Under the pieces are notes generated by a model. That model did no database searches, was not told the DNA's origin, and worked only from the letters and a program-made list of their open reading frames with translations. A stretch of DNA of 64,000 nucleotides from Myxococcales bacterium (GTDB taxonomy: Bacteria > Myxococcota_A > Polyangia > Nannocystales > Nannocystaceae), in contig JACKDV010000004.1 of assembly GCA_020633315.1 (NCBI GenBank), positions 384,071 to 448,070 of the forward strand, in the 5' to 3' direction. This document shows positions 23,416-61,964 of the stretch, piece by piece. The translations under genes were made by a program, and so were the position numbers. How positions within the stretch are numbered: the stretch's first letter is position 1; each line of letters begins with the position of its first letter.

Positions 23416-24057
23416 TCACCTGGCTCGGCTCGCTGGCCAGCAGGCATCGGGGCGCGCGGCGTCCTTGGGCCCCAGGCCCAGCACCTCGGCCACCTCGGCC
23501 AGCCGCACCCCGTCGAGCGCGGCCACCTCGGCGCCGTACAGCAGCTCGGTGTGCCGCTGCCCCTCCTTGAGGCGAAAGCCCGGCCGCCGCCCCTCCTCCT
23601 GCAGACCCAGGATCGTCATCAACCTCCGCGAGCCCATGTTGCCCACCAGGCACGAGCCCTCGAGGCGATGGGCCCCGTGGCAGCGCACCGCGTAGGCGCC
23701 CAGGAACCAGGCCAGGCGCGTGCCCACCCCGCGGCCCCACGCCGCGCGCCGGAGCTGGAAGCCGATCTCGAAGCCGCCGGGGCTGCCCTCCACCGCCACG
23801 GTCGCGCCCTGCCCCAGGAAGCCGCCGTCCCCGTCCTCCACCGCGAACACCGAGGTCGCGGGCAGCCGGCCCCGGGCCAGCGCCTCGGCCTGGGCATCGA
23901 GCAAGGGGCCGAAGTAGGCCTCGTAGAACGAGGGCGGCGCCGGGGCGAACCACAGCCAGCGCGTCACCGCGGGATCCTCGAGGGTCTCGAGGAAGGCCGG
24001 CAGGTCGTCGCGCGTGGCGAAGCGATAGCGCTCGGTGAACTCGGTGCGGCTCGTCAT
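23416..24057 (-). CDS. GNAT-family N-acetyltransferase.
   Basis: 'FAVEDGDGGFLGQGATV', 'QLRRAAWGRGVGTRL' (acetyl-CoA binding 'R/Q-x-x-G-x-G/A'). Lies 20 nt downstream of the spermidine-synthase fusion gene on the same strand. The track ORF 23416..27129 was trimmed to Met at 24057. Confidence 0.75.
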   Translation of the reverse strand: MTSRTEFTERYRFATRDDLPAFLETLEDPAVTRWLWFAPAPPSFYEAYFGPLLDAQAEALARGRLPATSVFAVEDGDGGFLGQGATVAVEGSPGGFEIGFQLRRAAWGRGVGTRLAWFLGAYAVRCHGAHRLEGSCLVGNMGSRRLMTILGLQEEGRRPGFRLKEGQRHTELLYGAEVAALDGVRLAEVAEVLGLGPKDAARPDACWPASRAR

Positions 24058-24077
24058 CGGGGCGTCCCCTTCCATCT

Positions 24078-27000
24078 TCACTCCCGCATGCCGTAGGCGG
24101 CAAGCACCTGGAACGCCCAGTCCCCGCTGTCGCGGCCCTCGCCCAGCGGCACCATGTGCTCGGCCGCGAAGGCCCGGCGTCGGGCCGGCTCCACCTCCAT
24201 CAGCTCCAGCGCCACCAGCCCGGCCAGCGCCCGGATGCGAGGCGAGAGCGCGAAGTCCTCTTCGTCCAGAGTGGGCTCCACCGCCGCCCACAGCCGCGGC
24301 CCCTGCCGCCGGGCCAGCGCGTCCATGATCTCCACCGAGCGCCGCACCTCGTCGGTCGCCTGCTCGCGGCCCGCCGTCTGCAGGACCGCGGCCCACCAGG
24401 GAGTGCTCGCCACGTCCACGAAGGGGATCGTGGCCTCGTAGAGCTCGTAGGTCGCCACCAGCCACCCGTGCCAGTCGCCGGGACCGGAGGCCTGCTGCTG
24501 CTTCCAGATCTGCATCATCACCCCGCGCAGCCCCTCGGGCACGGGCGAGCGCTCGAGCCCGAAGGCCCGCATGGCGAGCGCGGCCTCCTCGGCCTCCTCG
24601 AGGATGTGGGGGTCGCGGCGATCGCCGATGCCCTCGGGCGGATAGGGGCGCGGCTCGATGCCCGCGAGCACCGGCAGCACCGGCGCGGGGGCGAAGCGCA
24701 GCTCCAGCAGGAACTCCGCGTCGGATCGCAGGAAGCGCTGCTTCTCGGCCCCGGTGTCGAGCAGGGGCAGCTCGTCGCGGTTGGGCGTGCGGCCCGAGAT
24801 GAACGGATGCAGCAGCCGGCGGTTGCCCGCCACCAGCGCGTCGATCTGCCCGATGTCGTGGATCCCCAGCAGCGAGAGCGAGTCGTGCAGGCCGGGCCAG
24901 CCCAGCACCTGCTCCGAGAACGGGGGCACGGGCCCGTCGGGCGCCGCGAGGATCAGCCAGTCGAGGCTGCCGATGCGCACGATGAGGTAGTCCTCGAACT
25001 CCTGGTCGATCGCCGCGAGCACGCTCATCAGCAGCTCGTCGCTCAGCTCGTAGCCGTGCAGCCACTGCCCCAACAGGCCGCCCGGCTTCAGGTAGCGCTT
25101 GACCTCCTGGTAGAACTCCACCGTGAACAGGCTCGACACCCCGCTCACCCAGGGGTTGGTGGGCTCGGAGAAGATGAAGTCGTACTGGCCCGCGGCCGCG
25201 GCGAAGTAGGCCTTGGCGTCGTCGTAGACGATGTGGCTGCGCGGGTCCTCGTAGGCCCGCGCGTTGGCGGGCATGAAGTGGCGCGAGCCCTTCACCATCT
25301 CGGGCTCGATCTCCACCGTGTCGAGGCGCTGCAGGTTGGGCGAGCCCAGCACGGTGTGGGCGCTGACGCCCGAGCCGAAGCCGATGATCGCCCCGTGGGT
25401 GGCGTCGGGCTTGGCCATCAGCGGCAGGATGCCCATCAGCATCTGGGTGGGCTCGTCGCCCGCGAGCTCGGGGCCCAGCTCGGGGTCGCGTCCCTCCGGC
25501 CAGCGCTCGAGGATCACCGTGGCGTCGGGCTTCCCGTTGGCGTAGAGGATGTGGTAGCCGCGGTTGCCCCGGTTGTGGACCACGGTCACGCTCGAGGTGC
25601 GGCCGTCCACGTAGCTGAGGATCTCGTAGGACGAGGGCAGCTCCACCCGGCCGCTGCGGAACACGGTGGAGGACAGCACCATGGGGTCGATGCGGATCGA
25701 GACGAACGCGGCCGCGATCGCCATCACCGTGCCCCCGGCCGCGCTGAGCACGAAGCTGCGCAGGCGCTTGGAGGCCCCGCGCTGGCGCGCCTGGTGGGCG
25801 ATGAGCAGCACCCCCAGCCCCAGGTCGAGCGCCGCCCCGATGAGGATCACCCCCTTGATCCCCACCAGCGGCATCAGCAGCAGGCCCGCCGCCACCGCGC
25901 CGCAGATCGAGCCCAGGGTGTTGAGCCCGTACACCTGCCCCACCACCCCCTCGGGCTGGCCGCGCTCGAGCATCACCTTGGTGAGCAGGGGCAGGGTCAT
26001 GCCGGCGCAGAAGGTGGCCGGGAACATGATGAGCAGGCACAGCAGGTAGCGCAGCACGTTGAACACGCGCCACAGGCTCTCGCTGCGCTCGAGCTCGAGG
26101 TGCAGCAGCCACAGGTCGCGGGTGCCGGCGTCGTGCTCCATCAGCCAGCCCATGGCCTTCACCGCGTACTCGTACAGCGGCAGGGTCATGATCGCGGCCA
26201 GGCCCATCGCCAGCTGCACCACCGCCAGCACCACCTCGGGGTGCTCGAGGCGATCCATCCGCTTGCGGATGAACAGCCCGCCCATGGCCAGGCCCAGGAT
26301 GAAGGCCGAGAGCATCACCTCGAAGGAGTGGGTGGCCGAGCCCAGGATCATCGACAGCAGGCGGATCCAGCCCACCTCGTACATGAACGACGACAGGCCG
26401 GTGCCCAGCGCCACCGCCAGCAGCAGCCACACCAGCGGCGAGCGACGGGGCGCGGGCGGGCCGTCGCTCGCCGGAGCGCCCTCGCCCTCGCTCGCGGGCG
26501 GGCGGGCCTCGATGGGAGGCGCTGCCTCGCGGTCGCGGATCGCCACGAGCATGATGAGCAGGTTGATCGCCGCCGCCACCATCAAGGTGCCCGACAGCCC
26601 CAGCCACCCCACCAGCACGAAGCCCGAGACCACCGCGCCGATCGAGGCGCCCAGGCTGTTGGTGAAGTAGAGCAGGCTCAGCACCTCGCCCGAGTGCAGC
26701 AGGTCGCGGCGAAGGATCCCCACGCTCATCAGCGGGAAGGTGGTGCCCAGCAGCGTGCACGGGGGCAAGATGAGCAGCCCCGCCACCAGCCACTTGACCA
26801 CGGCCACGGCGGTTCCCCCGCCGAGCGCAGGGAACAGCAGGTCGTAGCTCAGGCGCATCGCAGCGTCGTAGAGGAACGGGAAGGCCAGGGCGTACAGACC
26901 GATGAGCCCTTCGATCACTCCGTAGGCGAGCACCGGGGATCGCAGCCGGGCCAGGTAGCGTCCCGCCAGCAGCGCGCCGGCCGACATGCCTCCCATGAAC

Positions 27001-27161
27001 AGGCTGAGCACCAGGATCTGGGCCGTGGCCGCGCTGCCCACGAACAGCCGGATGTAGCGCGACCAGATCGACTCGTAGAGCAGCCCGCTGACCCCCGAGA
27101 GGAAGAACAGCAGGAACAACACGCGCCAACGCGAACTGGGGCGAGGCGAGGCGTCGTGCAT
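24078..27161 (-). CDS. Fused polytopic membrane (MFS-like, ~12 TM) + spermidine-synthase-like aminopropyltransferase.
   Basis: ~500 aa of TM helices, then a SpeE-like domain 'AIIGFGSGVSAH', 'DFIFSEPTNPWVSGVSSLFTVEFYQEVKRYLKPGG', followed by a ~350-aa C-terminal extension. Confidence 0.8.
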   Translation of the reverse strand: MHDASPRPSSRWRVLFLLFFLSGVSGLLYESIWSRYIRLFVGSAATAQILVLSLFMGGMSAGALLAGRYLARLRSPVLAYGVIEGLIGLYALAFPFLYDAAMRLSYDLLFPALGGGTAVAVVKWLVAGLLILPPCTLLGTTFPLMSVGILRRDLLHSGEVLSLLYFTNSLGASIGAVVSGFVLVGWLGLSGTLMVAAAINLLIMLVAIRDREAAPPIEARPPASEGEGAPASDGPPAPRRSPLVWLLLAVALGTGLSSFMYEVGWIRLLSMILGSATHSFEVMLSAFILGLAMGGLFIRKRMDRLEHPEVVLAVVQLAMGLAAIMTLPLYEYAVKAMGWLMEHDAGTRDLWLLHLELERSESLWRVFNVLRYLLCLLIMFPATFCAGMTLPLLTKVMLERGQPEGVVGQVYGLNTLGSICGAVAAGLLLMPLVGIKGVILIGAALDLGLGVLLIAHQARQRGASKRLRSFVLSAAGGTVMAIAAAFVSIRIDPMVLSSTVFRSGRVELPSSYEILSYVDGRTSSVTVVHNRGNRGYHILYANGKPDATVILERWPEGRDPELGPELAGDEPTQMLMGILPLMAKPDATHGAIIGFGSGVSAHTVLGSPNLQRLDTVEIEPEMVKGSRHFMPANARAYEDPRSHIVYDDAKAYFAAAAGQYDFIFSEPTNPWVSGVSSLFTVEFYQEVKRYLKPGGLLGQWLHGYELSDELLMSVLAAIDQEFEDYLIVRIGSLDWLILAAPDGPVPPFSEQVLGWPGLHDSLSLLGIHDIGQIDALVAGNRRLLHPFISGRTPNRDELPLLDTGAEKQRFLRSDAEFLLELRFAPAPVLPVLAGIEPRPYPPEGIGDRRDPHILEEAEEAALAMRAFGLERSPVPEGLRGVMMQIWKQQQASGPGDWHGWLVATYELYEATIPFVDVASTPWWAAVLQTAGREQATDEVRRSVEIMDALARRQGPRLWAAVEPTLDEEDFALSPRIRALAGLVALELMEVEPARRRAFAAEHMVPLGEGRDSGDWAFQVLAAYGMRE

Positions 27162-27234
27162 CGTATTGCGCACCTTAGCCGGGGCCGGCCGAGCTGACCA
27201 GCCGGGGGCCGGCTGCTATAGTCCCCGGCGACCC

Positions 27235-27609: not shown

Positions 27610-29163
27610 ATGGGACTACTCGACAAGATGTTCGGCGGCGGCACCAACCTCGAGCTGCGGCTCGACACCGACAAGATCCCGGAGGGCGGCACGCTCTCGG
27701 GCACGGTGACCCTCTCGGGCGGCAAGAAGCCGCTCAAGCTCACCGCGCTCAAGGTCCGGCTGGTCTACGTCAAGGTGGAGAAGCGCGACGACTCGCCGCT
27801 GCCCAACATCGAGATGCAGGTGCTGCTCGACAACACCATCGTGGCCAACGCCGACCTGCCCCCGGCCTCGCTGCAGAAGTACGACTTCTCGTTCAAGGTC
27901 CCCACCGGCACCGATCCCGACGGTGAGTACCGGGTGCAGGCCACCGCCGACATCCCCAAGGTCAAGGACCCCTCGGCCGAGGCCAAGCTCAAGGTCATCT
28001 CCCCCGACAGCGCGGGGGCGAGCAAGGGGATCTTCAGCCGCCTCACCGGCAAGTCGAGCGAGGACGAGATCCTCGCGCAGTTCCCCGGGCTGATGTCCTC
28101 CGACGAGGACGAGCAGACCGAGGCGCTGAGCGACCTGACCTGCGCCGCCTACGACGACGACAACAACTTCGTGAACATCGCCGGGCACCTCGGCCGCATG
28201 ATGGCCAACGGCAGCGCCGAGGTGCGGGCCGCCGCCCTGCAGGCCTGGGGCACGGTGCTCAACAATCGCGCCAAGCCCGAGCACATCCAGGCGCTGTCGA
28301 GCATGGCCGCCGACCCGGCCGTGGCCTCCGACCGCCGCCTGATGAGCGAGGTGGTCGCGGTCGCGGCCAAGTTCGCCGAGGAGGGCGCGGGGCCGCTGGT
28401 GCAGTGGTTCGCCCAGCACCCCAACCCCGAGGTGCGCCGAGAGATGGCCGACCGCCTGCGCTTCGACGCCGACGAGGAGTTCATGGACAAGCGCGCCATC
28501 CTCACCGCGCTGGCCAACGACCCCGACCCCGGCGTGCGGGCCTCGGCCATCGGCGGGCTGAGCGAGCACAACGACGAGGCGGCGATGGTGAACGAATTCA
28601 TCCAGCGCTCGTTCTCCGATCCCTCGCCCGAGGTGCAGGCCGCGTGCATCTCGGCCATCACCCTGTCGCACCACTACGGCTTCGCCGAGCAGGTGTTCAC
28701 CACCTTCCAGCAGCACCTGGGCAACCAGCACGTGAAGGTCCGCAAGGAGCTCGCCGATTCCTCCCACTGGCTGCCCGCCGATCCGCGCCTGGCCGGCATC
28801 GTCCACGCGCTGCTCTCCGATCCCAGCGCCGAGGTGCGGCGCTCGATGGCGTGGCAGGGCGTCAACATGAGCGAGCACGGCGAGCTGGCCGAGCTGTTCA
28901 TGCGCGCCTGCGACGACCCCGACGAGGAGGTCGCCCAGGACGCGCTCAAGGGCATGGGCCGCCTGCTGGGCTTCGACCGCGCCGCCCAGTTCTACCGCCA
29001 GCGCCTGGCCACCCACCCCACCGAGAGCACCTACTGGGGCGTCTACTACGGGGTGTGCAACGACCTCGAGGAGCCGGCGGCCCGCCAGGTGATGCAGCAG
29101 CTCGCGCAGTCGCAATTCGCCGACGTGGCCAGCTCGGCCCGCGAGTCGCTGATGGATGCCTGA
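27610..29163 (+). CDS. Spo0M-like (arrestin-like) N-terminal domain fused to a PBS-lyase/HEAT-repeat domain.
   Basis: 'MGLLDKMFGGGTNLELRLDTDKIPEGGTLSGTVTLSGG' matches the Spo0M/SpoOM N-terminus. Repeated 'DPDPGVRASAIGGL', 'DPSPEVQAACISAI', 'DPSAEVRRSMAWQG' HEAT-like units. Confidence 0.65.
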   Translation: MGLLDKMFGGGTNLELRLDTDKIPEGGTLSGTVTLSGGKKPLKLTALKVRLVYVKVEKRDDSPLPNIEMQVLLDNTIVANADLPPASLQKYDFSFKVPTGTDPDGEYRVQATADIPKVKDPSAEAKLKVISPDSAGASKGIFSRLTGKSSEDEILAQFPGLMSSDEDEQTEALSDLTCAAYDDDNNFVNIAGHLGRMMANGSAEVRAAALQAWGTVLNNRAKPEHIQALSSMAADPAVASDRRLMSEVVAVAAKFAEEGAGPLVQWFAQHPNPEVRREMADRLRFDADEEFMDKRAILTALANDPDPGVRASAIGGLSEHNDEAAMVNEFIQRSFSDPSPEVQAACISAITLSHHYGFAEQVFTTFQQHLGNQHVKVRKELADSSHWLPADPRLAGIVHALLSDPSAEVRRSMAWQGVNMSEHGELAELFMRACDDPDEEVAQDALKGMGRLLGFDRAAQFYRQRLATHPTESTYWGVYYGVCNDLEEPAARQVMQQLAQSQFADVASSARESLMDA

Positions 29164-29252
29164 CCCCTCCTCGCTCGCCGCGCCGCCGCCCGCCGCCGCC
29201 CATGGAAGCGCGGCGGGTCCGGGCGCGGATCGAAGCCTGAGGGGCTCGCGCG

Positions 29253-29834
29253 TCAGTAGAGCACGATGTCGTGGTTGCCCGGCACGGTCACGAAGATCGT
29301 GACGCACTGCTCCGCCGCGTCGGTGACGAGCCAGGGATGGGTGGCGTAGGTGTAGTAGACGCCCGAAGTCTGGCCGGGCTCGAGCTGACCGAAGGGGTTC
29401 CTCGTGCCGGTGTAGTCCAGCCAGTACAGCCGCCGCACCGCGCCCGACTCGTTGTGCCACACGATCTGCGCCGCGGCATCGGCCGCGATCGAGGCCAGCG
29501 TGCCCTCCTCGGCGCAGGGGTGCTCGGGCAGGCTCTGCGCCGGAGGCCCGCCGCTGCTGCTCTCCTCGGCGTCGCCCGTCGTGCCCTCGCCGGTGCTGGT
29601 GTCCGCCGCCGCGCTGCTCGTCCCCGGCTCGAGCGTGTCGTCGCCCGTGGTGGCGACCGAGGTCCCGCCCTCGGCCGTGCCCACGCCGGTGCCCCCGGGG
29701 CCCGGGCCCTCGCTGGTCGATCCCGGCGCTCCCGTGGTGTCCTCCGGGGTCCCGCCGTCGCCCGAGCCGAAGCCTCCCGAGGTGGGCGAGCACCCCAGGA
29801 GCACGACGAGCGACAGCCAGCCCGCGCGGTGCAT
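29253..29834 (-). CDS. Lipoprotein with a C-terminal domain resembling the von Hippel-Lindau (VHL) beta-domain.
   Basis: 'MHRAGWLSLVVLLGC' lipobox and a Gly/Thr-rich linker. 'IVWHNESGAVRRLYWLDYTGTRNPFGQLEPGQTSGVYYTYATHPWLVTD' parallels the pVHL beta-domain '[47 protein letters not shown]' (recalled from memory). Confidence 0.55.
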   Translation of the reverse strand: MHRAGWLSLVVLLGCSPTSGGFGSGDGGTPEDTTGAPGSTSEGPGPGGTGVGTAEGGTSVATTGDDTLEPGTSSAAADTSTGEGTTGDAEESSSGGPPAQSLPEHPCAEEGTLASIAADAAAQIVWHNESGAVRRLYWLDYTGTRNPFGQLEPGQTSGVYYTYATHPWLVTDAAEQCVTIFVTVPGNHDIVLY

Positions 29835-29959
29835 GCCGGGAATGATAGAGGATGGGCCCGCCCCGGCGAAGGGGCGAGCCCCCGAGCTCCCGACCCAGCC
29901 CGAGCCGCCCCGAGGACCCCGGGCGCGGGCGCGGGCTCCGGTCGGGGTTCCTCGCCGCC

Positions 29960-31543
29960 CTACGGCCGCGGCCCCACGTACTCGATCGTGGCGTCGTCCG
30001 CCCCGCCCGAGCCGATGTTGATCAGGTTGCCGCCGAAGATGATCGACTTGTTGTGGCCCTGCACGTAGGCGAGCGCGGCGTTGAAGCGCGGCGTGGGCTC
30101 GGAGGCGGGGGTGATGTCGGCCCAGTCGTCGAGGCTGGGGTCGTAGGCCCAGGTGCCCGGGTCGGGGTCGTTGCAGCAGGTGTCGAGCTTGCCGCTGTGC
30201 ACGATGTACGAGCCGTCGGCGTAGTGCGAGCCGGTCTGCACGAACCAGGGACCAGGGGTGGTGGTGGGCGCGGCCTGGGACCAGCTGTTGCCGGCGACGT
30301 CGTAGCGCCAGGTCTGGTCGATGGGGATCCCCGGGTCGATGTCGTCGTCGTCGTAGCCGCCGAACAGGGTGATGGTGCCCAGCCCGTCGAAGCCCATGGT
30401 GTAGGCCGAGCGGGGGGTGGGAGCCCCGGCCGGCGCAAGGTCGGTCCAGGTGTCGGCCGCGACGTCGTAGGCCCAGGTGTCGCCCAGGTGGATGCCGAAG
30501 GAGGTGCGCCCGCCGTAGAGCACCATCGTGCCGTCGGCCACCGTCACCATCGAGACCGCGAAGCGCGGGGACGGGAGCAGGGGCGGGGCCATCATGGTCC
30601 ACTCCTCGGTGACCACGTCGAAGGCCCAGGTGTCCTGCAGGCCCGCGCCCCCGTTGGCCGTGTTGCCGCCGAAGAGGATCACCGTGTCGACGCCGTCGAA
30701 GGCCATCGCGTGCGCCTCGCGGATGGGCGGGGGCGTCATCGGGCTCAGCGCGCTCCAGGTGCCGGCCTCCACGTCGTAGACCCAGGTGTCGTTGAGCCGC
30801 GCTCCCCCTTGGTTGCGGCCGCCGAACATCAGCAGGCGACCGTCCCCGAGGTCGACCATCGCCGCGTTGTAGCGGGCCGAGGGGGACGCCGCGGGAGCGA
30901 GCACGCGGTAGGTGTTGGGCGTGGTGTGGGCACCCACCGTCACCTCGAACGGCGCCTCGTCGGCGTCGTCGTTGTCGATGCTCAGGGTGAGCTCCTTGAG
31001 CCCACCGTTGGTCGGCGCGAAGGTGACGGTGAACGAGGTGGAGCCCGCGGCGGGCACCACCGCGTCGAGCATGGCGGTGTCGAGGGTGAAGTGGGCGTCG
31101 TCCCCCGCCGTGATGCTCACCCCGTTCACCGCCAGGTCGGCGGTGCCCACGTTGTCGATGGTCACCACCACCGGGGTGCCGACCATGCCCACGTCGACGG
31201 TCTCCGCGACGTCGAAGAGGTCGCCCGTGGCCACCGCCGTCATGTCGATCGACACCTCGATCTCCGGGCCCACCGGCCCGCCCGAGGAGCTCGACTCGCC
31301 CTCGGTCGCCGTCGAGTCGGGACCCGGGCCCGACGAGCTCTCCGTGCCGGTCCCCGTGCCATCCGAGGTCATCGCGGTGGTCATGGTGGTGGGGGCGGTC
31401 GTCATCGTCATCGCACCCGTCGACGAGCCCGTGGAATCGTCGCCGGTCGTGCCGTCGCCCATGGGGTCGTCGGGACAGCCGGTGAGCGAGGCGAGCAGCA
31501 GCGTGATGGGAAGGGTCGAGGAGCGGCGCAGACGGTAGCTCAT
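29960..31543 (-). CDS. Kelch-repeat (beta-propeller) lipoprotein.
   Basis: 'LLLASLTGC' lipobox. Multiple Kelch units 'LMFGGRNQGGARLNDTWVYDVEAGTWS', 'ILFGGNTANGGAGLQDTWAFDV', 'VLYGGRTSFGIHLGDTWAYDV', 'TLFGGYDDDD..DQTWRYDV'. Confidence 0.8.
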   Translation of the reverse strand: MSYRLRRSSTLPITLLLASLTGCPDDPMGDGTTGDDSTGSSTGAMTMTTAPTTMTTAMTSDGTGTGTESSSGPGPDSTATEGESSSSGGPVGPEIEVSIDMTAVATGDLFDVAETVDVGMVGTPVVVTIDNVGTADLAVNGVSITAGDDAHFTLDTAMLDAVVPAAGSTSFTVTFAPTNGGLKELTLSIDNDDADEAPFEVTVGAHTTPNTYRVLAPAASPSARYNAAMVDLGDGRLLMFGGRNQGGARLNDTWVYDVEAGTWSALSPMTPPPIREAHAMAFDGVDTVILFGGNTANGGAGLQDTWAFDVVTEEWTMMAPPLLPSPRFAVSMVTVADGTMVLYGGRTSFGIHLGDTWAYDVAADTWTDLAPAGAPTPRSAYTMGFDGLGTITLFGGYDDDDIDPGIPIDQTWRYDVAGNSWSQAAPTTTPGPWFVQTGSHYADGSYIVHSGKLDTCCNDPDPGTWAYDPSLDDWADITPASEPTPRFNAALAYVQGHNKSIIFGGNLINIGSGGADDATIEYVGPRP

Positions 31544-31750
31544 GCCCACCAGATACCAGAGGTCCGCCTCCGTCGTGACACCGCCTCGGTTGCGTCCGCA
31601 CACATCACGCGCTCGATCCAGTCGAGGACCTTCGCGCGCTCCTCGGCGGGCCGCCCCGGACGCAGGCGAACCTCGATTCGGGGCCCTGGTGGCGGAGGAA
31701 GGGTTGGCCCGATGACACGGGCGGGGCCCGGGTCGGTCGCGCCCCCGAGC

Positions 31751-32737
31751 TCAGCGCAGCAGGTACTCGCGGGTCGCGTCGAGCACCGCGTCGGTCTGCT
31801 CGACCATCAGCCGGTGCCCCGCGTCGGCGACGTGGACCACCGACGCCTCGCGGAACAGCCCCTGGTGGTAGCGCTCCTGGAAGCTCCACCCCAGCGCGCT
31901 GCACTCCGAGCCCAGCAGCAGCACCGGGGGCGCGAGGCTCCGCAGGCCGTCGGCGTAGTCGAACTCGAAGCGACCGGCCCGGTGGGGCTGCAGCTTCTGG
32001 TTGCGGACGAGATCGAGGTAGGCCCCGGGGCGCCACACCGGCAGCTCGGGCAGGTCGTCGGGATCGCAGTAGTAGTGCAGCAGCGAGCCGGAGTGCAGGA
32101 GCATGAGGGCCTTGAGGTCCATCTGCTCGTGGTCGAGGGGACCGAGCACCTGCCCCTGCCAGTAGGTCCGAGCCAGCGAGGGATCGAAGAGCTGGAGGTC
32201 GAACACCTGGTCGAAGGTCTCGCCGAAGATCTCGCCCGTGAGCCCGGCGGGCTCGAGCAGGACCAGGCCGGCCACGTCCTCGGGGCGACGCGAGGCGTGC
32301 AGCGCCGCATACATCGCCCCGAACGAGTGCCCCACCAGGGTGACCGGAGCCTCCGGCGAGTAGCGCTGCTTGATCGCGGCGATCTCCTCCACGACGGGCC
32401 CCTCGCCGATCTCGTCGGCGCCGATGCGCTCCGAGAGCCCGTTGCCCCGCTGATCCCACAGCACCACGAAGAAGCCGTCGTCGGCCAGCTCGGCGAACGA
32501 GCGCATCGAGCGGAAGTCGGCGAGCGAGCCGTGCAGCACCAGCACCACGGGGTCGTCGGGATCGCCGTGGGTCTCGAGGTGGATGGCGCGGGCGTGCCCC
32601 GCCACCTCGATCTCGATCTGGGGGAGCCGCGGATCCTCGTCGGCGGTGGGCGGCACGAGCACCCCGAGCCCATCCGCGTCCATGCACGCGCCCGCCGGGC
32701 TCGCCAGCGCCAGCACCAGCCCGAGCCGCCTCACCAT
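31751..32737 (-). CDS. Alpha/beta-hydrolase-fold lipoprotein.
   Basis: 'LVLALASPAGAC' lipobox. 'VVLVLHGSLADF', nucleophile elbow 'GHSFG', C-terminal His 'DAGHRL'. Confidence 0.75.
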   Translation of the reverse strand: MVRRLGLVLALASPAGACMDADGLGVLVPPTADEDPRLPQIEIEVAGHARAIHLETHGDPDDPVVLVLHGSLADFRSMRSFAELADDGFFVVLWDQRGNGLSERIGADEIGEGPVVEEIAAIKQRYSPEAPVTLVGHSFGAMYAALHASRRPEDVAGLVLLEPAGLTGEIFGETFDQVFDLQLFDPSLARTYWQGQVLGPLDHEQMDLKALMLLHSGSLLHYYCDPDDLPELPVWRPGAYLDLVRNQKLQPHRAGRFEFDYADGLRSLAPPVLLLGSECSALGWSFQERYHQGLFREASVVHVADAGHRLMVEQTDAVLDATREYLLR

Positions 32738-35587: not shown

Positions 35588-37537
35588 ATGGTCCTTGCCC
35601 CCTTCGGATTGCGTGGCTCCTTGCTCCTGAGCGTCGGCGTGCTGCTGGCCGCGTGCCCCGACGATCCCATCCCCTCCGACACCGAGCCGGGCACCACCAG
35701 CAGCACGGACACGGGCAGCGGCTGCGACCCGGGTGAGATCGCGAGCTGCACCTGCGAGGACGGCCGCGAGGGCACCCAGGTGTGCGAGGCCGACGGCCAG
35801 GGCTTCTCGCCCTGCGAGTGCGAAGCCGCCACCTCGGCGGTCGACGACACCAGCACCGGAGGCACCGACGAGACCACCGCGGGCGAGGAGAGCACCGGTC
35901 CCGGCGGCTGCGTGAGCGACGACGAGTGCATGCCGGTGAGCGGCGAGTGCTGGGTGGGGCTGTGCCTGGAGGACGGGAGCTGCTCGGAGCAGTGGGCACC
36001 GCCCGGCACTCCCTGTGGCGATCCCAACGACGACGAGTGCACCGCCCCCGACACCTGTGCCGGCAGCGTGTGCGTGTCCAACGACGTGGACGACGGGCTG
36101 AGCTGCACCGACTGCCCCTCGGGGCAGTGCGCCTGCGCGGCCGGGGCCTGCGGAGACTGCCCGGCCTTCGCGGTCACCAACAGCTTCAACACCGCGCGCT
36201 CGGTGGCGGGCTGGACCTTCACCGGGAGCTGGGGGCTCAAGCGGCAGACCCCACAGAGCCAGCTCGAGCTGCCGTCGCGCTTCCCCGGGCAGGTGATCGG
36301 CAGCGACGGCAACCGGGTGGCCCCGTTTCCGGGCGCCGAGACCGAGGTCTCGTACGCCCGCACGCCGCCGGTGGTGCTGCCGGCCACGCTCGGCTTCCTG
36401 TCGTGGCACATCGACGAGGGCGGCGGCACCACCGACAACAAGACGGTGCGGGTCTCCACCGACGGGGGCATGAGCTGGGACACCCTGGCCGACTGCGCGG
36501 TCGACCCGTCCTACGTGTTCTGCGAGTATCGGGACACGGGCAACCCGGCGGTGTGGTACCCCGCGCTGATCCCCGTGCCCCCCGCCCTGCAGGGCCAGGT
36601 GGCGATCGTCGAGTTCGGCTACGACACCGGCGACAGCTGCTGCGACTTCGAGAAGGGCTGGTACATCGACTCGCTCAACTTCGCCACCGAGTGCGCCTGC
36701 GGGGCCGACTCGGACTGCGACGCCTACTCCGACACCTGCGGCACCGGCATCTGCCAGCTCAACGGCGAGTGCGGGCTCGACCCCATGCCCGACGACACCG
36801 CCTGCGGCGACCCCTTCGACAACGACTGCAACGGCGCGGACCTCTGCGACGGCGTGGGCTACTGCGACGACAACGAGGCCGCCAACGGCCTGAGCCTGTG
36901 CGGCGACTGCCCCTCGGGGGCCTGCTCGTTCTGCGACGGCGACCAGTGTCTGGACTGCCTGAGCTACACCGACTTCGGCGACTTCAGCGACCCGGCCGGC
37001 GTCGCCACCTGGCAGGTGATCAGCATCACGGGGACCCCCGACTGGGGCCTGTACGACGAGGCACCGCCCAACGAGGACCTCGGCTCGCTACCCATCCCCT
37101 TCCCCAACGCGCCGGTCTACGGCACCGACGGCAACCGCAACCCGCCCTACCCCGGCGAGGAGGAGGAGCACTCGCAGGTGATCACCAACATGGTGGCGGT
37201 GCCGGCCGAGATCTCCTTCATGTCGTGGAACGTGGACGAGGGCGACTTCTTCGACACCAAGCGCATCGACATCTCCGTCAACGGCGGGATGACCTGGAAC
37301 AACCTCGTCGACTGTGCGGTGGCCCCCACCCAGCCCTTCTGCAACTTCGTGGACGAAGGCCGGGCGGCGAACGACTGGGACCTCGTGGTCCTCGACACCT
37401 CGATGTGGATGGGCCAGCCGGGGCAGCTCCGCTTCAGCTACGACACCGGCGACAGCTGCTGCACCTTCGAGCGCGGCTGGTACATCGATGACCTGAGCTT
37501 CGCCTCGTACTGCGACGACGAGCCGTTCCCTCCCTGA
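35588..37537 (+). CDS. Cys-rich secreted lipoprotein with two internally duplicated ~300-aa modules.
   Basis: 'LLLSVGVLLAAC' lipobox. Each module ends 'DTGDSCC(D/T)FE(K/R)GWYID(S/D)L(N/S)FA(T/S)(E/Y)C'. 50+ Cys. Confidence 0.75.
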   Translation: MVLAPFGLRGSLLLSVGVLLAACPDDPIPSDTEPGTTSSTDTGSGCDPGEIASCTCEDGREGTQVCEADGQGFSPCECEAATSAVDDTSTGGTDETTAGEESTGPGGCVSDDECMPVSGECWVGLCLEDGSCSEQWAPPGTPCGDPNDDECTAPDTCAGSVCVSNDVDDGLSCTDCPSGQCACAAGACGDCPAFAVTNSFNTARSVAGWTFTGSWGLKRQTPQSQLELPSRFPGQVIGSDGNRVAPFPGAETEVSYARTPPVVLPATLGFLSWHIDEGGGTTDNKTVRVSTDGGMSWDTLADCAVDPSYVFCEYRDTGNPAVWYPALIPVPPALQGQVAIVEFGYDTGDSCCDFEKGWYIDSLNFATECACGADSDCDAYSDTCGTGICQLNGECGLDPMPDDTACGDPFDNDCNGADLCDGVGYCDDNEAANGLSLCGDCPSGACSFCDGDQCLDCLSYTDFGDFSDPAGVATWQVISITGTPDWGLYDEAPPNEDLGSLPIPFPNAPVYGTDGNRNPPYPGEEEEHSQVITNMVAVPAEISFMSWNVDEGDFFDTKRIDISVNGGMTWNNLVDCAVAPTQPFCNFVDEGRAANDWDLVVLDTSMWMGQPGQLRFSYDTGDSCCTFERGWYIDDLSFASYCDDEPFPP

Positions 37538-39872: not shown

Positions 39873-42536
39873 TCAGCTCTCGTCCTCGCTCCGCTTGGCT
39901 CGCAGCGCTCGCTCGATGTCCGCGGGCGATAGCGCATGCATCTGCACCATCGTCATCTGCTCCTCGTCGTTGGGCACGGCCTGGGCGTCGGGAGCCAGCA
40001 GTGGCGGCTGCTCGGGCGAGGCGGGAGGCCGCGGGAGCGGACCTGGCAGGGGGGTCACCTCGTCCTCGTCGAAGTCGTCCTCGTCGTCGAGTCGTGCCGG
40101 GGGTGGAGTGGGCGCGCTCCACTGGGGCGCCGGCTCGTCCTCGGGCTGGGGCACGGAGGGCGGCGGCACGGGGGCGGCCCACTGCGGGGGGCCATCGGTG
40201 GCGATCGGCGGCGGCGGGGTGGGGGCCGCCCACGGCGGAGGCCCGTCGTCGGGCTTGGGCACGGAGGGCGGCGGCATGGGGGCGGCCCACTGCGGCGACT
40301 CGGCGGAGGCCACGGACGGAGGCGGCATGGGGGCGGCCCACTGCGGCGGCTCGGCGGAGGCCACGGACGGGGGCGGCACCGGAGCGGACCACGAGGGCGG
40401 CTCGTCGGCGGCGACCGGGCCGAGCGGAGGCGGGGCCCACTGCGGCGGCTCGGCCCCGGCCCCGGGCGTCGAGGCGGGCGGAGGCGGAGCGGACCACTGC
40501 GGCGGCGCCACGGGCATGGGCGGCGACGGGGGCTCGGGCACGGGGGCCGTGGCCCGCGGCTGACCCTTGGCGAGCGCTCGGGCGATGTCGGCCGCCGACA
40601 GCGGGGTGAGCCGCGCCATGGTCGGGGCCTCCTCGCCGCCGCCGAAGGTGGTATCGGGGCCCATCGGTCCGAGGGTGGGCGCGTCGATGTCGTCCATCGA
40701 GCCGTGAGCCGGCCCGAGGGTGGGGCCCTCGAGGTCGTCGATGAGCGGAGGCCGAGCCCGCGACGGCGGGGCCGCGACGGGCGGCGCGATGGTGGGTGCA
40801 TCGAGGTCCACGCGAGGCAGCGCGGCAGCCCCCGGCGGAGCGATGGTGGGCGCGTCGAGGTCCACGCGAGGCAGCGCGGCGGCTCCGGGCGGGGCGATGG
40901 TGGTCGCGTCCTGATCGACGGTGTCCTCGGCCTCGGCTCGGGCCTGGGCGCGCTCGGCCGCGGCCTGGGCCACGGCCTGCTGGGCGCGGGCGATCTCCTC
41001 GGGCGTCAGCGCCCGCATGTGCAGCATGGTCGCCGGCTCACCGTCGTCGTCGTCGTCATCGTCGTCGTAGATGAGCTCGGAGATCGCCGCCTTGGCGGGC
41101 GGGGGGGGCCCGTCGGCCACGGCCGGCATCTCCGGCCGGGTGATCGCGCGGGACGAGGCGGGCGGGCTCGGCTTGGGCAGCAGCGACGGATCGAGCGGGC
41201 TCAGGGCGCGCGTGGCCTCGGGCTCCTCGGCGGCCGGCGTGCCGGGGGGCACCGTGGTCGCGTCCTCGTCGTGCCCGTCGTCGTCGTCCTTGCCCCCCTC
41301 GAGCTCGACCAGCGCCTCCATCAGCGCGGCACCGTCGAGGGTGATGGTGGCGTTGACGTCGAGCTTGGGGCCCGGCCGCGACTTGGGCGGAGGCGGGGGC
41401 GGTCGCGACGGCGTGGAGCTGCGGAGCATCACCTGCTCCATCTCGTCCACGAGCAGCTCGTCGAGGTCGAGGGTCAGCGTGCCCTCGGCCTCGATGAGCC
41501 GCACCGACGAGTCCTCCCGGCCGGGCACCGGGGCGCGCCGCGACTCCTCCATCACCAGGTCGGCGATGCTGAGCACCACCGTGCCCTCGGGGGCAGGGGG
41601 CGGCGGGTCCACGGGGGGGATCGTGCGGGGCCTGGGGATCTCCACCCGCTTGAGCGAGCGCAGGAAGCCGAGATCGGTGGGCCGCCAGTAGCGGGCGTGG
41701 TTGAGGATCGCGTCGGCCTTGTCGGCCTGCCCGGTGGCGCCGAGCTCCTCCACCAGGCGCTCGAGCACGGCGAGGGACTTGTCGGAGCGGCCGATGACAG
41801 CGAAGGCCTGCGCCAGGATCTCGTAGCCCACGATGTCGCCCGGGCTCGCCTTGGTGAGCTGGCCCAGGGCCCGCACCGCGTCGTGGGGACGGCCCAGCTC
41901 CAGGTACACCCGCGGCATGTCGCGCAGGGTGTTGAGGTCGCGGGGCTCGAGCGCGAGCACCTGCGAGGCCACGCCCACGTAGTCCTGGTAGCGCTTGGCC
42001 TGCAGCAGCAGGTTGCCCGCGTCGCTCAGGGCCTCCACCGCCTCGCGCTTCATGTGGCGCGCCTGGTAGATGCGCGCGAGCTGCATGCGGACCTCGGGGT
42101 TGTGCGGGTCGAGCTCCGCCCCCAGCCGCAGCATCTGCAGGCCGTCGGTCTGTCGCCCCGCGCCCAGGTGCAGCTCGGCCGCCTTGGCGCACAGCGGCCG
42201 CGCCTGCCGGCCGATGCGGCGGATCATCGGACCCACCGACATGTACACGAACGACTGCGGCGCGATGTTGATGACGCGCTCGCAGATCGCCAGACACTCC
42301 TGGGGGTGCCCCCGCGCCGCGTAGGCCTGGGCGACCATCAGGTAGTGCTCCGCCGCGGGCTCGGGCTGCTGCAGGTACGCCAGGCACTCGGCGAGCTGCA
42401 TGCGGATCGCGAACTTCGAGGGGTCTTGGTCCAGCGCCGCCGTGTACAGCTGCACGGCCATGTCGGGGCGCCCGGCCGCCTGCCACTGCGCGGCTTGGGC
42501 GGCGAGCTGCTCCGCCTGCGTCACCCGCGCGAGCAT
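39873..42536 (-). CDS. TPR-repeat protein with a long Pro-rich low-complexity C-terminal tail of tandem 'PPQWAAP(M)PPPSV' units.
   Basis: N-terminal ~300 aa of TPR-like helices. Acidic segment 'DDDDDDDDGE'. Three copies of 'DAPTIAPPGAAALPRVDL'. About 8 'PPQWAAP' units. Confidence 0.75.
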   Translation of the reverse strand: MLARVTQAEQLAAQAAQWQAAGRPDMAVQLYTAALDQDPSKFAIRMQLAECLAYLQQPEPAAEHYLMVAQAYAARGHPQECLAICERVINIAPQSFVYMSVGPMIRRIGRQARPLCAKAAELHLGAGRQTDGLQMLRLGAELDPHNPEVRMQLARIYQARHMKREAVEALSDAGNLLLQAKRYQDYVGVASQVLALEPRDLNTLRDMPRVYLELGRPHDAVRALGQLTKASPGDIVGYEILAQAFAVIGRSDKSLAVLERLVEELGATGQADKADAILNHARYWRPTDLGFLRSLKRVEIPRPRTIPPVDPPPPAPEGTVVLSIADLVMEESRRAPVPGREDSSVRLIEAEGTLTLDLDELLVDEMEQVMLRSSTPSRPPPPPPKSRPGPKLDVNATITLDGAALMEALVELEGGKDDDDGHDEDATTVPPGTPAAEEPEATRALSPLDPSLLPKPSPPASSRAITRPEMPAVADGPPPPAKAAISELIYDDDDDDDDGEPATMLHMRALTPEEIARAQQAVAQAAAERAQARAEAEDTVDQDATTIAPPGAAALPRVDLDAPTIAPPGAAALPRVDLDAPTIAPPVAAPPSRARPPLIDDLEGPTLGPAHGSMDDIDAPTLGPMGPDTTFGGGEEAPTMARLTPLSAADIARALAKGQPRATAPVPEPPSPPMPVAPPQWSAPPPPASTPGAGAEPPQWAPPPLGPVAADEPPSWSAPVPPPSVASAEPPQWAAPMPPPSVASAESPQWAAPMPPPSVPKPDDGPPPWAAPTPPPPIATDGPPQWAAPVPPPSVPQPEDEPAPQWSAPTPPPARLDDEDDFDEDEVTPLPGPLPRPPASPEQPPLLAPDAQAVPNDEEQMTMVQMHALSPADIERALRAKRSEDES
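40146..40520. repeat. ~48-51-bp GC-rich tandem repeats (coding the PPQWAAP units).
   Basis: 'ggcggcccactgcggcg.ctcggcggaggccacggacgg.ggcggca..gg' repeats back-to-back at 40281-40331 and 40332-40382, with degenerate flanking copies. Confidence 0.6.
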
Positions 42537-42604
42537 ACCACCCAAATGGTGTCGGTCGGCGGCCCGCCATCGCGGGTCCGCTCACGTGCCGCGCTCGGGG
42601 CGGA

Positions 42605-59518: not shown

Positions 59519-61744
59519 TCAGAAGTTCTCGTAGACGATGACCACGTTGTCACCGACCACCGGCACGTTGTTGAGGATCTGCAGGGTGCAGGTGAGCGGG
59601 TCGTAGCTCCAGTCGCCGGGCGGCATCGGGATGCCGTTGACCACCACCGTGATCGTGGCCGGATCGATGAGCGCGCAGCTCCCCGGCGGCACCCCGTCGA
59701 GGATGTAGAGGTCGTTGGGCACGCCGGCCAGGATGTCGTTGGCGAGGCCGCTGAGATCCCAGGGCGCGTCGCAGATGGAGAACATCGAGGGCAGGGTGTT
59801 GGTGACCTGGGCGAGCTTGACGTACTCCTGGCCGTCCTCCACCCCGGTGACGCAGGTGTTGAACTCGTAGACGTCGTCGGCGCCCGTGAGGGTGGCGGTG
59901 CCGGTGTTGCCGATGATCGGGAACACGCCCCAGTCGTCGCCGGGCGTGCTGTCCGGGAAGTAGTCGCCCATGAAGGAGACGAAGCCGCCGTAGATCAGGA
60001 AGTCGAAGGCCAGCGAGGTGTAGTTGCCCAGGCCCGGCGGATCCCAGCGGCAGATGTTGTCCACCGTGAGGTCGTCGATGATGCCGAAGCCGCAGTCGTC
60101 CACGTTGGAGGAGTCGCCGTCGGCGATGGTCCACTGGGGATCGTCGCCGTCGTCGTCCGAGGTGAAGATGAAGGCGATGTACGAGTTGGGCTGCAGCCGC
60201 GGGATCCAGTAGCCCGACTGCTGCATCACCCGGCCGATGGCGTTGCTCGAGTGCACGAACTCGAAGCCGTTGGTCGGGCCGTTGGTGTCGTACTGCCAGA
60301 AGCCGGCGCCCGGGTTGTCGGCGCAGCCGGCCCCGCCCAGCGGGGGCGACACGCAGATCTCGAACGACTCGGTGCCGCGGTCGGCGATGAGGTGCAGCGC
60401 GGTGGACGAGCCGGACGCGGCCAGGTCGTTGGCGAAGGAGTTGATCTCCGCCTCCACCGTGGCCATCTCCTCGCTCATCGAGCCCGAGGAGTCCACGGCC
60501 CAGATCACGTCGATGGGCCGGGTGGCGGTGTCGGTGCCCACCAAGAAGGTCTCGGCGCAGGGCGGGGCCACCCCGTCGCAGTTGTTGTCGATGCCGTCGC
60601 CGCAGATCTCTGGCCCGCCCGGGATCGGCACGCAGGTGTTCTCGGGCTGCGGCACGCCGCCGATGCACTGCGGCACGGTGACCTCGCACTCGTTCATGCC
60701 GCAGGTCCAGTTGCCCTGGTCCTCGTCCACGATGCAGTCGCAGTCGTTGTCGATGCCGTCGCAGATCTCCGGGCTGGCGCCCTCGAAGGGATCGCAGACC
60801 TGGGGGAAGCCGTTGATGCACGACGCGATGGTGTGCTCGCACGCTCCGCAGCCGCAGGTGATGTCGGGCAGGCCCTCGTCGGTCGCGCCGTCGCAGTCGT
60901 TGTCGATGTCGTCGCAGACCTCGGGGGAGGCGCCCTCGAAGGGATCGCAGGGGGGCACCGCCCCGCCCTCGCAGGCCGACACGGTGTGCTCGCACTGGCC
61001 CACGCCGCAGCTCTGGGTCTCGTCGCCCAGGCCCTCGTCGATGTCGCCGTCGCAGTCGTTGTCGACCAGGTCGCAGATCTCGGGCGTGGCCCCGTCGAGG
61101 GGATCGCACAGCTGCTCCATGCCCAGCACGCAGTTGTCCTGCTCGTGCAGGCACGGGCCCAGGCCGCACTGGGTGGTGCCCAGGTCCTCGTCGAGGTCGC
61201 CGTCGCAGTCGTTGTCGACCGCGTCGCAGACCTCCATGGTGGGCAGGCCCTCGCCCTCGCAGGGCCCCCACTCGCCCACGTCGAGGTCGAGCGCCTGGCA
61301 CTGCTGGATGCCCGGCGTGCACTCGCCCACGTTGTACGTGGCCGGGTTGCCCGTGTAGCAGTAGCGGACCTGGCCCGGAGGGGCGCACAGGCCCGTCTCC
61401 TCGCCGGGGTAGCGATCGGGAGGATCGCCCGGGCCTCCGCCGCCGGTGTCCCCGCTGCCGCCCGTGTCGGGATCGCTGCTGGTGGTCCCGTCGCCCGGGC
61501 CCATCGTCTCGCCGTTGGTGTCGTCGGCCGAGTCGCCGGAGTTGGCCGCACCGGTGCCGATGCCATCGCTGCCCGCGGTGCCGTCCATCCCGCTGGTGGC
61601 TCCGGTGCTGCCCGCGGTGGCGCTCGTTCCTCCGGAGCCGTCGTTGCCTGCGGTGGCGTTCGCGACGTCGTCGGAGCCTCCGCACGCTCCGAGGGCGACA
61701 GCAACGACCGACGATCCGATGAGGCGAAAATCGAAGCGAGCCAT
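59519..61744 (-). CDS. Secreted lipoprotein: 5 MopE-like putative metal-binding motifs ('CDxxDNDCDGxxDE') + vWA-like domain + C-terminal beta domain.
   Basis: 'VVAVALGAC' lipobox. 'EVCDAVDNDCDGDLDE', 'EICDLVDNDCDGDIDE', 'EVCDDIDNDCDGATDE', 'EICDGIDNDCDCIVDE', 'EICGDGIDNNCDG'. vWA 'IDVIWAVDSSGSMSEE'. An 'aggggatc' RBS precedes the trimmed start. Confidence 0.8.
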   Translation of the reverse strand: MARFDFRLIGSSVVAVALGACGGSDDVANATAGNDGSGGTSATAGSTGATSGMDGTAGSDGIGTGAANSGDSADDTNGETMGPGDGTTSSDPDTGGSGDTGGGGPGDPPDRYPGEETGLCAPPGQVRYCYTGNPATYNVGECTPGIQQCQALDLDVGEWGPCEGEGLPTMEVCDAVDNDCDGDLDEDLGTTQCGLGPCLHEQDNCVLGMEQLCDPLDGATPEICDLVDNDCDGDIDEGLGDETQSCGVGQCEHTVSACEGGAVPPCDPFEGASPEVCDDIDNDCDGATDEGLPDITCGCGACEHTIASCINGFPQVCDPFEGASPEICDGIDNDCDCIVDEDQGNWTCGMNECEVTVPQCIGGVPQPENTCVPIPGGPEICGDGIDNNCDGVAPPCAETFLVGTDTATRPIDVIWAVDSSGSMSEEMATVEAEINSFANDLAASGSSTALHLIADRGTESFEICVSPPLGGAGCADNPGAGFWQYDTNGPTNGFEFVHSSNAIGRVMQQSGYWIPRLQPNSYIAFIFTSDDDGDDPQWTIADGDSSNVDDCGFGIIDDLTVDNICRWDPPGLGNYTSLAFDFLIYGGFVSFMGDYFPDSTPGDDWGVFPIIGNTGTATLTGADDVYEFNTCVTGVEDGQEYVKLAQVTNTLPSMFSICDAPWDLSGLANDILAGVPNDLYILDGVPPGSCALIDPATITVVVNGIPMPPGDWSYDPLTCTLQILNNVPVVGDNVVIVYENF

Positions 61745-61934
61745 GATCCCCTGACCTCTGCGCTCTGATTCGAGCGGCCTCACATGATTACATGAAAAAA
61801 CCGTTGGCTTCCATCCAATAAAATTTCGCATAGAAAACTGCTTGGATTCCTGTTTTCGGGCGGCCAGCCGGATCGGAGCCCCCGCTACCGAGGGAGTTAC
61901 CGCCGATTTTCTTCGTGCGACAGATGTTTTTGTA

Positions 61935-61964
61935 TTGCTGAATACCAATAATATGGATGATAAT
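61935..61964 (+). promoter_or_regulatory. Candidate sigma-70-like promoter (TTGCTG-N17-TGATAAT) in an AT-rich region.
   Basis: 'ttgctg' at 61935-40, a 17-nt spacer, then 'tgataat' at 61958-64, about 30 nt upstream of the ATG at 61994. The local GC of ~45% contrasts with the ~70% genome. Confidence 0.3.

Follow-up and report, generated by a model that had tools for sequence, protein, structure and literature searches.

The human von Hippel-Lindau protein (pVHL; PDB 1LM8, 1VCB, and 4W9H) is the substrate-recognition module of the CRL2-VHL ubiquitin ligase and reads hydroxyproline-564 of HIF-1alpha. Here, we describe a lipoprotein with a predicted VHL beta domain from a Myxococcales bacterium. 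Its gene (29253-29834, minus strand) lies in a stretch of 64,000 nucleotides (nt) (GenBank assembly GCA_020633315.1, contig JACKDV010000004.1, positions 384,071 to 448,070 of the forward strand), which we refer to as the window and in whose coordinates the window genes are given. The 193-amino-acid (aa) product corresponds exactly to the protein record MCB9714349.1, "hypothetical protein [Myxococcales bacterium]." An earlier note on this DNA had suggested that the protein forms a periplasmic recognition system with the product of the adjacent gene, a Kelch-repeat lipoprotein.

The window domain keeps the equivalents of pVHL S65, N78, W88, G93, S111 (as Thr), Y112, H115, and W117, whereas Y98 is present as Phe and N67 and R69 are not conserved. 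Unlike pVHL, which is cytosolic and nuclear, the window protein is an exported lipoprotein with two extra cysteines (C107 and C177) and without a HIF or PHD partner. It also lacks the alpha domain with its VHL box and therefore the means of recruiting elongin C and cullin-2. A beta domain without a functional alpha domain is shared with VHLL, a beta-domain-only human VHL paralog that binds without ligase recruitment (PMC7465906). VHLL is, however, a recent mammalian duplicate that is cytosolic and part of the HIF pathway, with no evolutionary or contextual link to the bacterial lipoprotein.

Among bacterial proteins, the accessory protein of type X retrons consists of an IHF-like domain, a transmembrane helix, and a VHL beta domain, and the function of prokaryotic VHL beta domains was stated to be unknown in the same work (Mestre et al. 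2020; PMC7736814). Like the window protein, the retron protein has a PF01847 domain and no alpha domain, but it carries a DNA-binding domain and its VHL domain is placed on the cytoplasmic side, whereas the window protein is a long-tethered lipoprotein that has no further domain and is not associated with retron or defense genes. Litorilituus sediminis EMK97_00595 has been listed in an in silico note as a secreted hypothetical VHL-domain protein (PMC9002001); like the window protein, it is short, secreted, and single domain and has no alpha domain. Nothing further on bacterial PF01847, "VHL-like," or myxobacterial VHL proteins was found in the literature searched, within which the function and the pocket conservation of the bacterial VHL beta domain appear unstudied. 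The 193-aa protein is a further member of a known, uncharacterized bacterial family, the presence of the domain in bacteria having already been catalogued.

A VHL beta domain in a tethered lipoprotein

Pfam PF01847 matched residues 114-174 of the 193-aa protein with an E value of 2.6e-9 and 37.4 bits (profile positions 2-61 of 82), against a curated gathering threshold of 21 bits, and was its sole Pfam match even at an E value of ≤10. Human and mouse pVHL were the only PDB sequences matched by phmmer at an E value of ≤0.005 (best, 1.7e-4). In the opposite direction, a bacteria-only profile of 151 domain copies found residues 60-123 of human pVHL at 50 bits. The alignment to pVHL that the earlier note had drawn by hand is the one that HMMER and phmmer produced. 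For residues 97-193, an AlphaFold2 model calculated from an alignment of 56 homologs had a predicted local distance difference test (pLDDT) score of 95.5, and the top 50 matches of this model in a Foldseek search of the PDB were all pVHL, with a TM score of about 0.70. The model is a seven-stranded beta-sandwich that can be superimposed on pVHL residues about 63-154. Judged by sequence profile and predicted fold, the C-terminal domain is a genuine VHL beta domain, as the earlier note had claimed.

No alpha domain or VHL box (Pfam VHL_C) was detected in the 193-aa protein, which terminates at the residue aligned to pVHL P154, where the alpha domain of pVHL would start. The protein is therefore not a substrate receptor of a ubiquitin ligase (cullin-RING), and without recruitment of elongin C or cullin it has no role in ubiquitylation or HIF-type oxygen sensing. 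The gene has the following layout.

29790..29834 (minus strand), lipoprotein signal peptide of the VHL-domain protein, residues 1-15, MHRAGWLSLVVLLGC, with lipobox L-L-G-C and Cys15, from the translation
29526..29789 (minus strand), low-complexity tether, residues 16-103, 88 aa, with the composition G 23, T 16, S 13, P 9, A 8, E 7, and D 6
29256..29525 (minus strand), VHL beta domain, residues 104-193, predicted seven-stranded beta-sandwich with the putative pocket residues W138, F148, T162, H166, and W168 and the cysteine pair C107/C177
29253..29255 (minus strand), stop codon TGA

By pattern inspection, the N terminus (MHR-AGWLSLVV-LLGC) combines a positively charged n-region and a hydrophobic h-region with a lipobox of the form [LVI][ASTVIL][GAS]C. 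Lipobox signal peptides also begin the closest relatives (P0010, P0014, P0025, P0082, and P0113). The tether is predicted to be disordered: in a single-sequence AlphaFold model of the protein (overall pLDDT, 52), the pLDDT of this region was mostly below 50 and no secondary structure was formed. The relatives have linkers of the same type, the sequence of which is not conserved.

The bacterial family is large and mostly exported

An exhaustive HMMER search over 1.84 billion cluster representatives, from genomes and metagenomes, recovered at least 2,621 clusters of the VHL beta family at 50% identity (E value of ≤1e-3), with 515 at an E value of ≤1e-10; a word-indexed homolog search gave one relative only. 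PF01847 matched 132 of the 138 best hits shorter than 1,200 aa. A scan of GTDB species genomes, with the search for related loci based on seven close sequences, yielded 71 VHL-domain loci, all of them bacterial and spread over many phyla, including Acidobacteriota, Cyanobacteria (Nostoc and Calothrix), Sericytochromatia, Alpha- and Gammaproteobacteria, Gemmatimonadota, Myxococcota, Planctomycetota, Chloroflexota, and Actinomycetota.

The family comprises single-domain secreted proteins of 90 to 130 aa, tethered lipoproteins like the window protein, and proteins with 2 to 10 tandem copies of the domain. Fusions occur with TIR_2 (10 of 138 proteins), caspase, protein kinase, CAP, PKD, and lactonase domains, as well as with Laminin_G_3, WSC, BACON, ricin-B and L-type lectins, and glyoxal/galactose-oxidase-like Kelch enzymes. 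By a crude test of hydrophobicity and lipobox, the domain is preceded by a signal peptide, a lipobox, or a transmembrane helix in about 97 of 150 family representatives. Each cysteine of a pair that is absent from pVHL (C107 and C177 in the window protein) is present in 85 to 86% of the copies, and the two occur on a both-or-neither basis (128 copies with both, 20 with neither, and 3 with a single one). Nearly all predicted exported copies carry the pair. This pattern, together with the link to export, suggests a C107-C177 disulfide.

Two groups differ in topology from the short exported proteins. The first (P0002 to P0006; 1,700 to 2,000 aa) has 7 to 10 tandem VHL beta domains and neither a signal peptide nor the cysteine pair; these highly repetitive proteins appear to form a cytoplasmic branch of the family. 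In the second (L013, 2117-3151, plus strand; L058, 3288-6740, plus strand; and P0029), a lone transmembrane helix separates an N-terminal TIR domain from one or two VHL beta domains at the C terminus, with WD40 repeats also present in the L058 protein. This topology resembles that of a Toll-like receptor, with the VHL domain in the position of an outside sensor. Three further loci (L051, L062, and L074) combine a TIR-like domain with a VHL domain and have no transmembrane helix.

Residues of the hydroxyproline pocket are conserved in the bacterial family

In human pVHL, the hydroxyproline site is formed by Trp88, Tyr98, His110, Ser111, His115, and Trp117; Ser111 and His115 hydrogen bond to the hydroxyl of the hydroxyproline, Tyr98 bonds to its carbonyl, and the His110 backbone bonds to the amide NH (PMC9528729). 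The left-hand pocket is lined by Phe91 and Tyr112 (PMC9528729). We read the corresponding columns from an alignment of 152 bacterial domain copies and pVHL and verified the residue numbers of the window protein against its sequence.

pVHL W88: bacterial family, W in 97%; window protein, W138
pVHL Y98: bacterial family, Y in 78% and F in 7%; window protein, F148
pVHL S111: bacterial family, T in 89% and S in 5%; window protein, T162
pVHL H115: bacterial family, H in 91%; window protein, H166
pVHL W117: bacterial family, W in 88% and F in 8%; window protein, W168
pVHL F91: bacterial family, Y in 63% and F in 15%; window protein, Y141
pVHL Y112: bacterial family, Y in 51% and F in 42%; window protein, Y163

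Five of the six human hydroxyproline-site residues rank among the 13 most conserved of the 96 columns (P of 1e-4 in a rough hypergeometric calculation), and the remaining columns conserved at 90% or more are the equivalents of pVHL S65, N78, and G93 only. The most telling positions are the two that bond the ligand hydroxyl: although overall identity is only about 26%, bacterial and human proteins still share polar residues there, with Thr/Ser in 94% and His in 91% of the bacterial copies. The window protein itself preserves most of the site on which the earlier note had proposed to check its idea, with W138, T162, H166, and W168 matching W88, S111, H115, and W117; the match fails at Y98, which is replaced by F148.

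Interest in these proteins lies in the conservation of the pocket across the family rather than in the window locus in particular: thousands of VHL beta relatives, mostly exported, keep residues that read hydroxyproline in humans.

Candidate ligands and alternative functions

On balance, though with modest confidence, we favor the view that the window protein is a stand-alone, tethered lipoprotein binding module that uses a VHL-type pocket and has no partnership with the Kelch protein. Its lipid-anchored N terminus and flexible Gly/Thr/Ser-rich tether of 88 residues would present one C-terminal VHL beta-sandwich, probably stabilized by the C107-C177 disulfide, in an orientation in the envelope that we infer. 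The ligand would be gripped in the aromatic pocket with the Thr/His hydrogen-bonding pair, as pVHL holds the 4-hydroxyl of hydroxyproline, and the likeliest candidate would be a short peptide segment with a proline-type ring, either hydroxylated or unmodified, a choice in which we place less confidence than in the binding module as such. The earlier note had put forward hydroxylated or Pro-rich envelope ligands, which are possible candidates. The use of the domain singly, in tandem, or in fusion with lectins, oxidases, proteases, and, across a transmembrane helix, TIR domains fits a portable ligand-recognition module. Such proteins, TIR-linked transmembrane receptors among them, may represent a new class of adhesin or sensor modules in bacteria.

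Several observations weigh against this reading. The Tyr-to-Phe replacement at position 148 removes the hydroxyl that bonds the hydroxyproline carbonyl in pVHL (PMC9528729), and N67 and R69 of the pVHL left-hand-side pocket are not conserved in the bacterial copies. In pVHL, W117, F76, and F136 are components of the aromatic core, and W117 forms a structural "aromatic tetrahedron" with F76, F119, and F136 (PMC3688787); part of the conservation is therefore structural. A Pfam scan of 42 window proteins revealed neither a 2-oxoglutarate/Fe(II) oxygenase nor a prolyl hydroxylase, and the 10 recurrent neighbor clusters annotated at the 71 VHL loci included no prolyl hydroxylase. Several fusion partners of the domain are carbohydrate-binding modules, which speak just as much for a glycan ligand. 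The proposed disulfide and pocket geometry come from the alignment.

A broader and more tentative proposal, which we regard as rather doubtful, is that bacterial PF01847 proteins as a group are extracytoplasmic readers of hydroxyproline or the proline ring and that the pocket is an ancient bacterial invention, to which metazoans later added the alpha domain. Under this proposal, the hydroxyproline could come from hydroxyproline-rich glycoproteins of plants or algae, from collagen, or from hydroxylated proteins of the bacterial envelope itself. If true, the proposal would conflict with the de novo origin of VHL in Eumetazoa that has been stated (PMC7465906), and it predicts binding of VH032 and other VHL ligands to surface proteins of bacteria. 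If bacterial binding were proven, hydroxyproline recognition could predate animals. The domain, which is small, probably well behaved, and predicted to be disulfide stabilized, might also offer stable VHL-like scaffolds for ligand and degrader chemistry.

The main rival to a peptide-binding module is a carbohydrate-binding module, in which the pocket would hold a sugar ring or small cyclic metabolite and the lipoprotein would tether the cell to a polysaccharide or sense it. Sugar-binding sites typically pair aromatic residues with polar groups that form hydrogen bonds. The domain is exported, carries a predicted disulfide, and occupies typical carbohydrate-binding-module positions in its fusions with L-type and ricin-B lectins, WSC, Laminin_G_3, BACON, PKD, and glyoxal/galactose-oxidase-like enzymes. 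The conserved residues are nevertheless exactly those that touch the pyrrolidine ring and the peptide backbone in pVHL (PMC9528729), and the cytoplasmic TIR-VHL proteins and giant tandem-repeat members without export signals are a poorer fit to a glycan ligand. We consider this alternative unlikely.

It is less probable still that the domain is a purely structural or spacer sandwich that has no specific ligand and whose conserved residues merely keep the fold. Ig-like sandwiches serve as spacers in many bacterial surface proteins, the tandem arrays reach 10 copies, and the residues at the positions of W117, F76, and F136 would, as in pVHL, stabilize an aromatic core (PMC3688787). The polar Thr/Ser and His residues are, however, hard to ascribe to folding alone when they persist between bacteria and human at such low overall identity, and in the window protein the VHL beta domain is the sole folded domain, leaving nothing to space.

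The Kelch lipoprotein is an unrelated neighbor

The VHL-domain gene and its upstream neighbor are both on the minus strand. As the earlier note had recognized, they lie 125 nt apart and both encode lipoproteins (lipoboxes LLGC with Cys15 and LTGC with Cys23).

29960..31543 (minus strand), Kelch lipoprotein gene, upstream neighbor, 527 aa, lipobox LTGC with Cys23
29835..29959 (minus strand), intergenic spacer between the Kelch and VHL genes, 125 nt, GC rich

The N terminus of the Kelch protein (MSYRLRR...LLLASLTGC) agrees with the lipobox pattern on inspection. It is followed by a Thr/Gly/Ser/Met-rich linker, a choice-of-anchor-D/ASH-like Ig domain at residues 94-196 (NF012200, E value of 1e-12; PF15780), and a propeller at residues about 216-527 (PF24681, E value of 1e-58), in which Kelch_1, 3, 4, and 6 match, with four to five stretches each. 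A consensus scan of positions 29000-31900 gave no sigma-70-like promoter and no intrinsic terminator, a scan that is uninformative at 72% GC.

Kelch orthologs with 44 to 60% identity, such as the "kelch repeat-containing protein" of Paraliomyxa miuraensis, are present in Nannocystaceae and other Myxococcota and share the length and domain order of the window Kelch protein; such lipoproteins are common in Nannocystaceae. The earlier note had called the two folds best known as eukaryotic modules; a mainly eukaryotic distribution does not fit these Kelch lipoproteins and a VHL beta family of at least 2,621 clusters with 71 named bacterial loci. Within 5 kb of the four closest Kelch orthologs (60, 60, 54, and 53% identity), a six-frame search with hidden Markov models (HMMs), in which the positive controls were detected, revealed no VHL domain. 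Conversely, no Kelch neighbor was found at the three closest relatives of the VHL lipoprotein with genomic context: at the P0010 locus (L001), the neighbor is divergent and ACP-like; at the P0014 locus (L002), the upstream gene ends in "...SGAVYLY," an FG-GAP-type repeat; and at the P0025 locus (L003; 52% identity), the VHL gene lies between a PT-HINT-like gene and a metallophosphatase gene.

The same was seen across the 71 VHL loci, where tblastn detected no relative of the window Kelch gene over a distance of about 6 kb and a Kelch-repeat HMM gave no more than one weak neighbor. This consensus-based HMM recovered the window Kelch protein, which served as the positive control, along with two family members, P0143 and P0073; a phmmer search with the window Kelch protein and our own HMM of its six blades were too insensitive against the family members and the neighboring open reading frames (ORFs). 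All-against-all clustering of 730 neighbor ORFs from these loci disclosed no recurrent partner gene beyond lineage synteny and generic families, the recurrent clusters being RecA, FGGY kinase/M28 peptidase, histidine kinase, ABC transporter, SDR, and others. The Kelch-VHL arrangement is kept in four other metagenome contigs, where the proteins are identical and the contigs therefore come from the same species, so the co-occurrence that the earlier note had asked about is confined to same-species adjacency.

Kelch and VHL domains are fused in 2 of the 138 family members, P0143 (a fragment) and P0073. The window Kelch protein is not related to the Kelch part of P0143. P0073, classed by its domain content rather than by direct comparison with that protein, resembles a glyoxal oxidase and carries an L-type lectin and three VHL domains. 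In both fusions, the VHL domain has the appearance of an accessory module through which an enzyme binds. Lipoproteins account for about 10 of the 47 gene calls in the window (∼20%), with similar acidic Gly/Ser/Thr linkers and in some cases adjacent genes; with roughly one gene in five encoding a lipoprotein, two adjacent lipoprotein genes are expected by chance.

The Kelch lipoprotein is an unrelated neighbor and not a conserved partner. The paired periplasmic system of the earlier note, in which co-transcribed Kelch and VHL lipoproteins would recognize hydroxylated or Pro-rich envelope proteins, is largely refuted by synteny and very improbable, because the shared strand, the short spacer without a detected terminator, the similar tethers, the same-species conservation, and the two fusions are set against the absence of the pair at the close VHL relatives, the 71 loci of named genomes, and the close Kelch orthologs, the different nature of the fused Kelch parts, the chance expectation of adjacent lipoprotein genes, and the lack of a hydroxylase among the 42 window proteins scanned. 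For the locus itself, the result is a modest one: VHL-beta-domain lipoprotein is an appropriate annotation for MCB9714349.1, and there is no need to retain the Kelch partnership.

Other genes of the window

The window has a GC content of about 72% throughout. The many Pro-rich proteins that the earlier note had seen in it come down to a single clear case (39873-42545, minus strand; 16.6% Pro), the others having 2 to 11% Pro. This 890-aa protein has N-terminal TPR repeats, apparently no signal peptide, and a Pro-rich C-terminal half with about eight PPQW(A/S)AP(M/V/T)PPPSV repeats and acidic runs. We rejected it as a ligand of the VHL-domain protein for lack of support: its gene lies at a distance of 10 kb, the product has no signal peptide, and the linkage of the two genes is not conserved.

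Fusions of the TIR, caspase, and retron kinds in other family members raised the idea of a link to defense systems, which we rejected for the window locus on the basis of its neighbors, which encode a Spo0M-HEAT protein, an alpha/beta hydrolase, a putative outer membrane protein, FabV, and an MFS-spermidine-synthase fusion. The Spo0M-HEAT gene (27610-29163, plus strand; 517 aa, with a Spo0M-like N-terminal domain and HEAT repeats) is convergent with the VHL gene, with 89 nt between the stops, an arrangement conserved in same-species contigs only. The fusion protein (24078-27173, minus strand; 1,031 aa) combines an MFS-like multipass membrane domain with a spermidine/spermine-synthase domain and a long C-terminal extension, and the stop codon of its gene is overlapped by a GNAT acetyltransferase gene (23416-24081).

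Two further lipoproteins stand out among the window genes. One (35588-37537, plus strand; 649 aa, LLAACPDD) is Cys rich, with an internal duplication of a module of about 250 aa and no Pfam match. The other (59519-61948, minus strand; 809 aa) carries three MopE-type putative copper/metal-binding motifs (PF11617, E value of 3e-21), and its gene adjoins two lipoprotein genes. Acidic Gly/Ser/Thr/Asp tethers are found at the mature N termini of lipoproteins across the window (e.g., those at 4278, 35588, 37589, 48135, 58443, 59519, and 61994), and such low-complexity tethers seem to be a house style of the envelope proteome of this organism.

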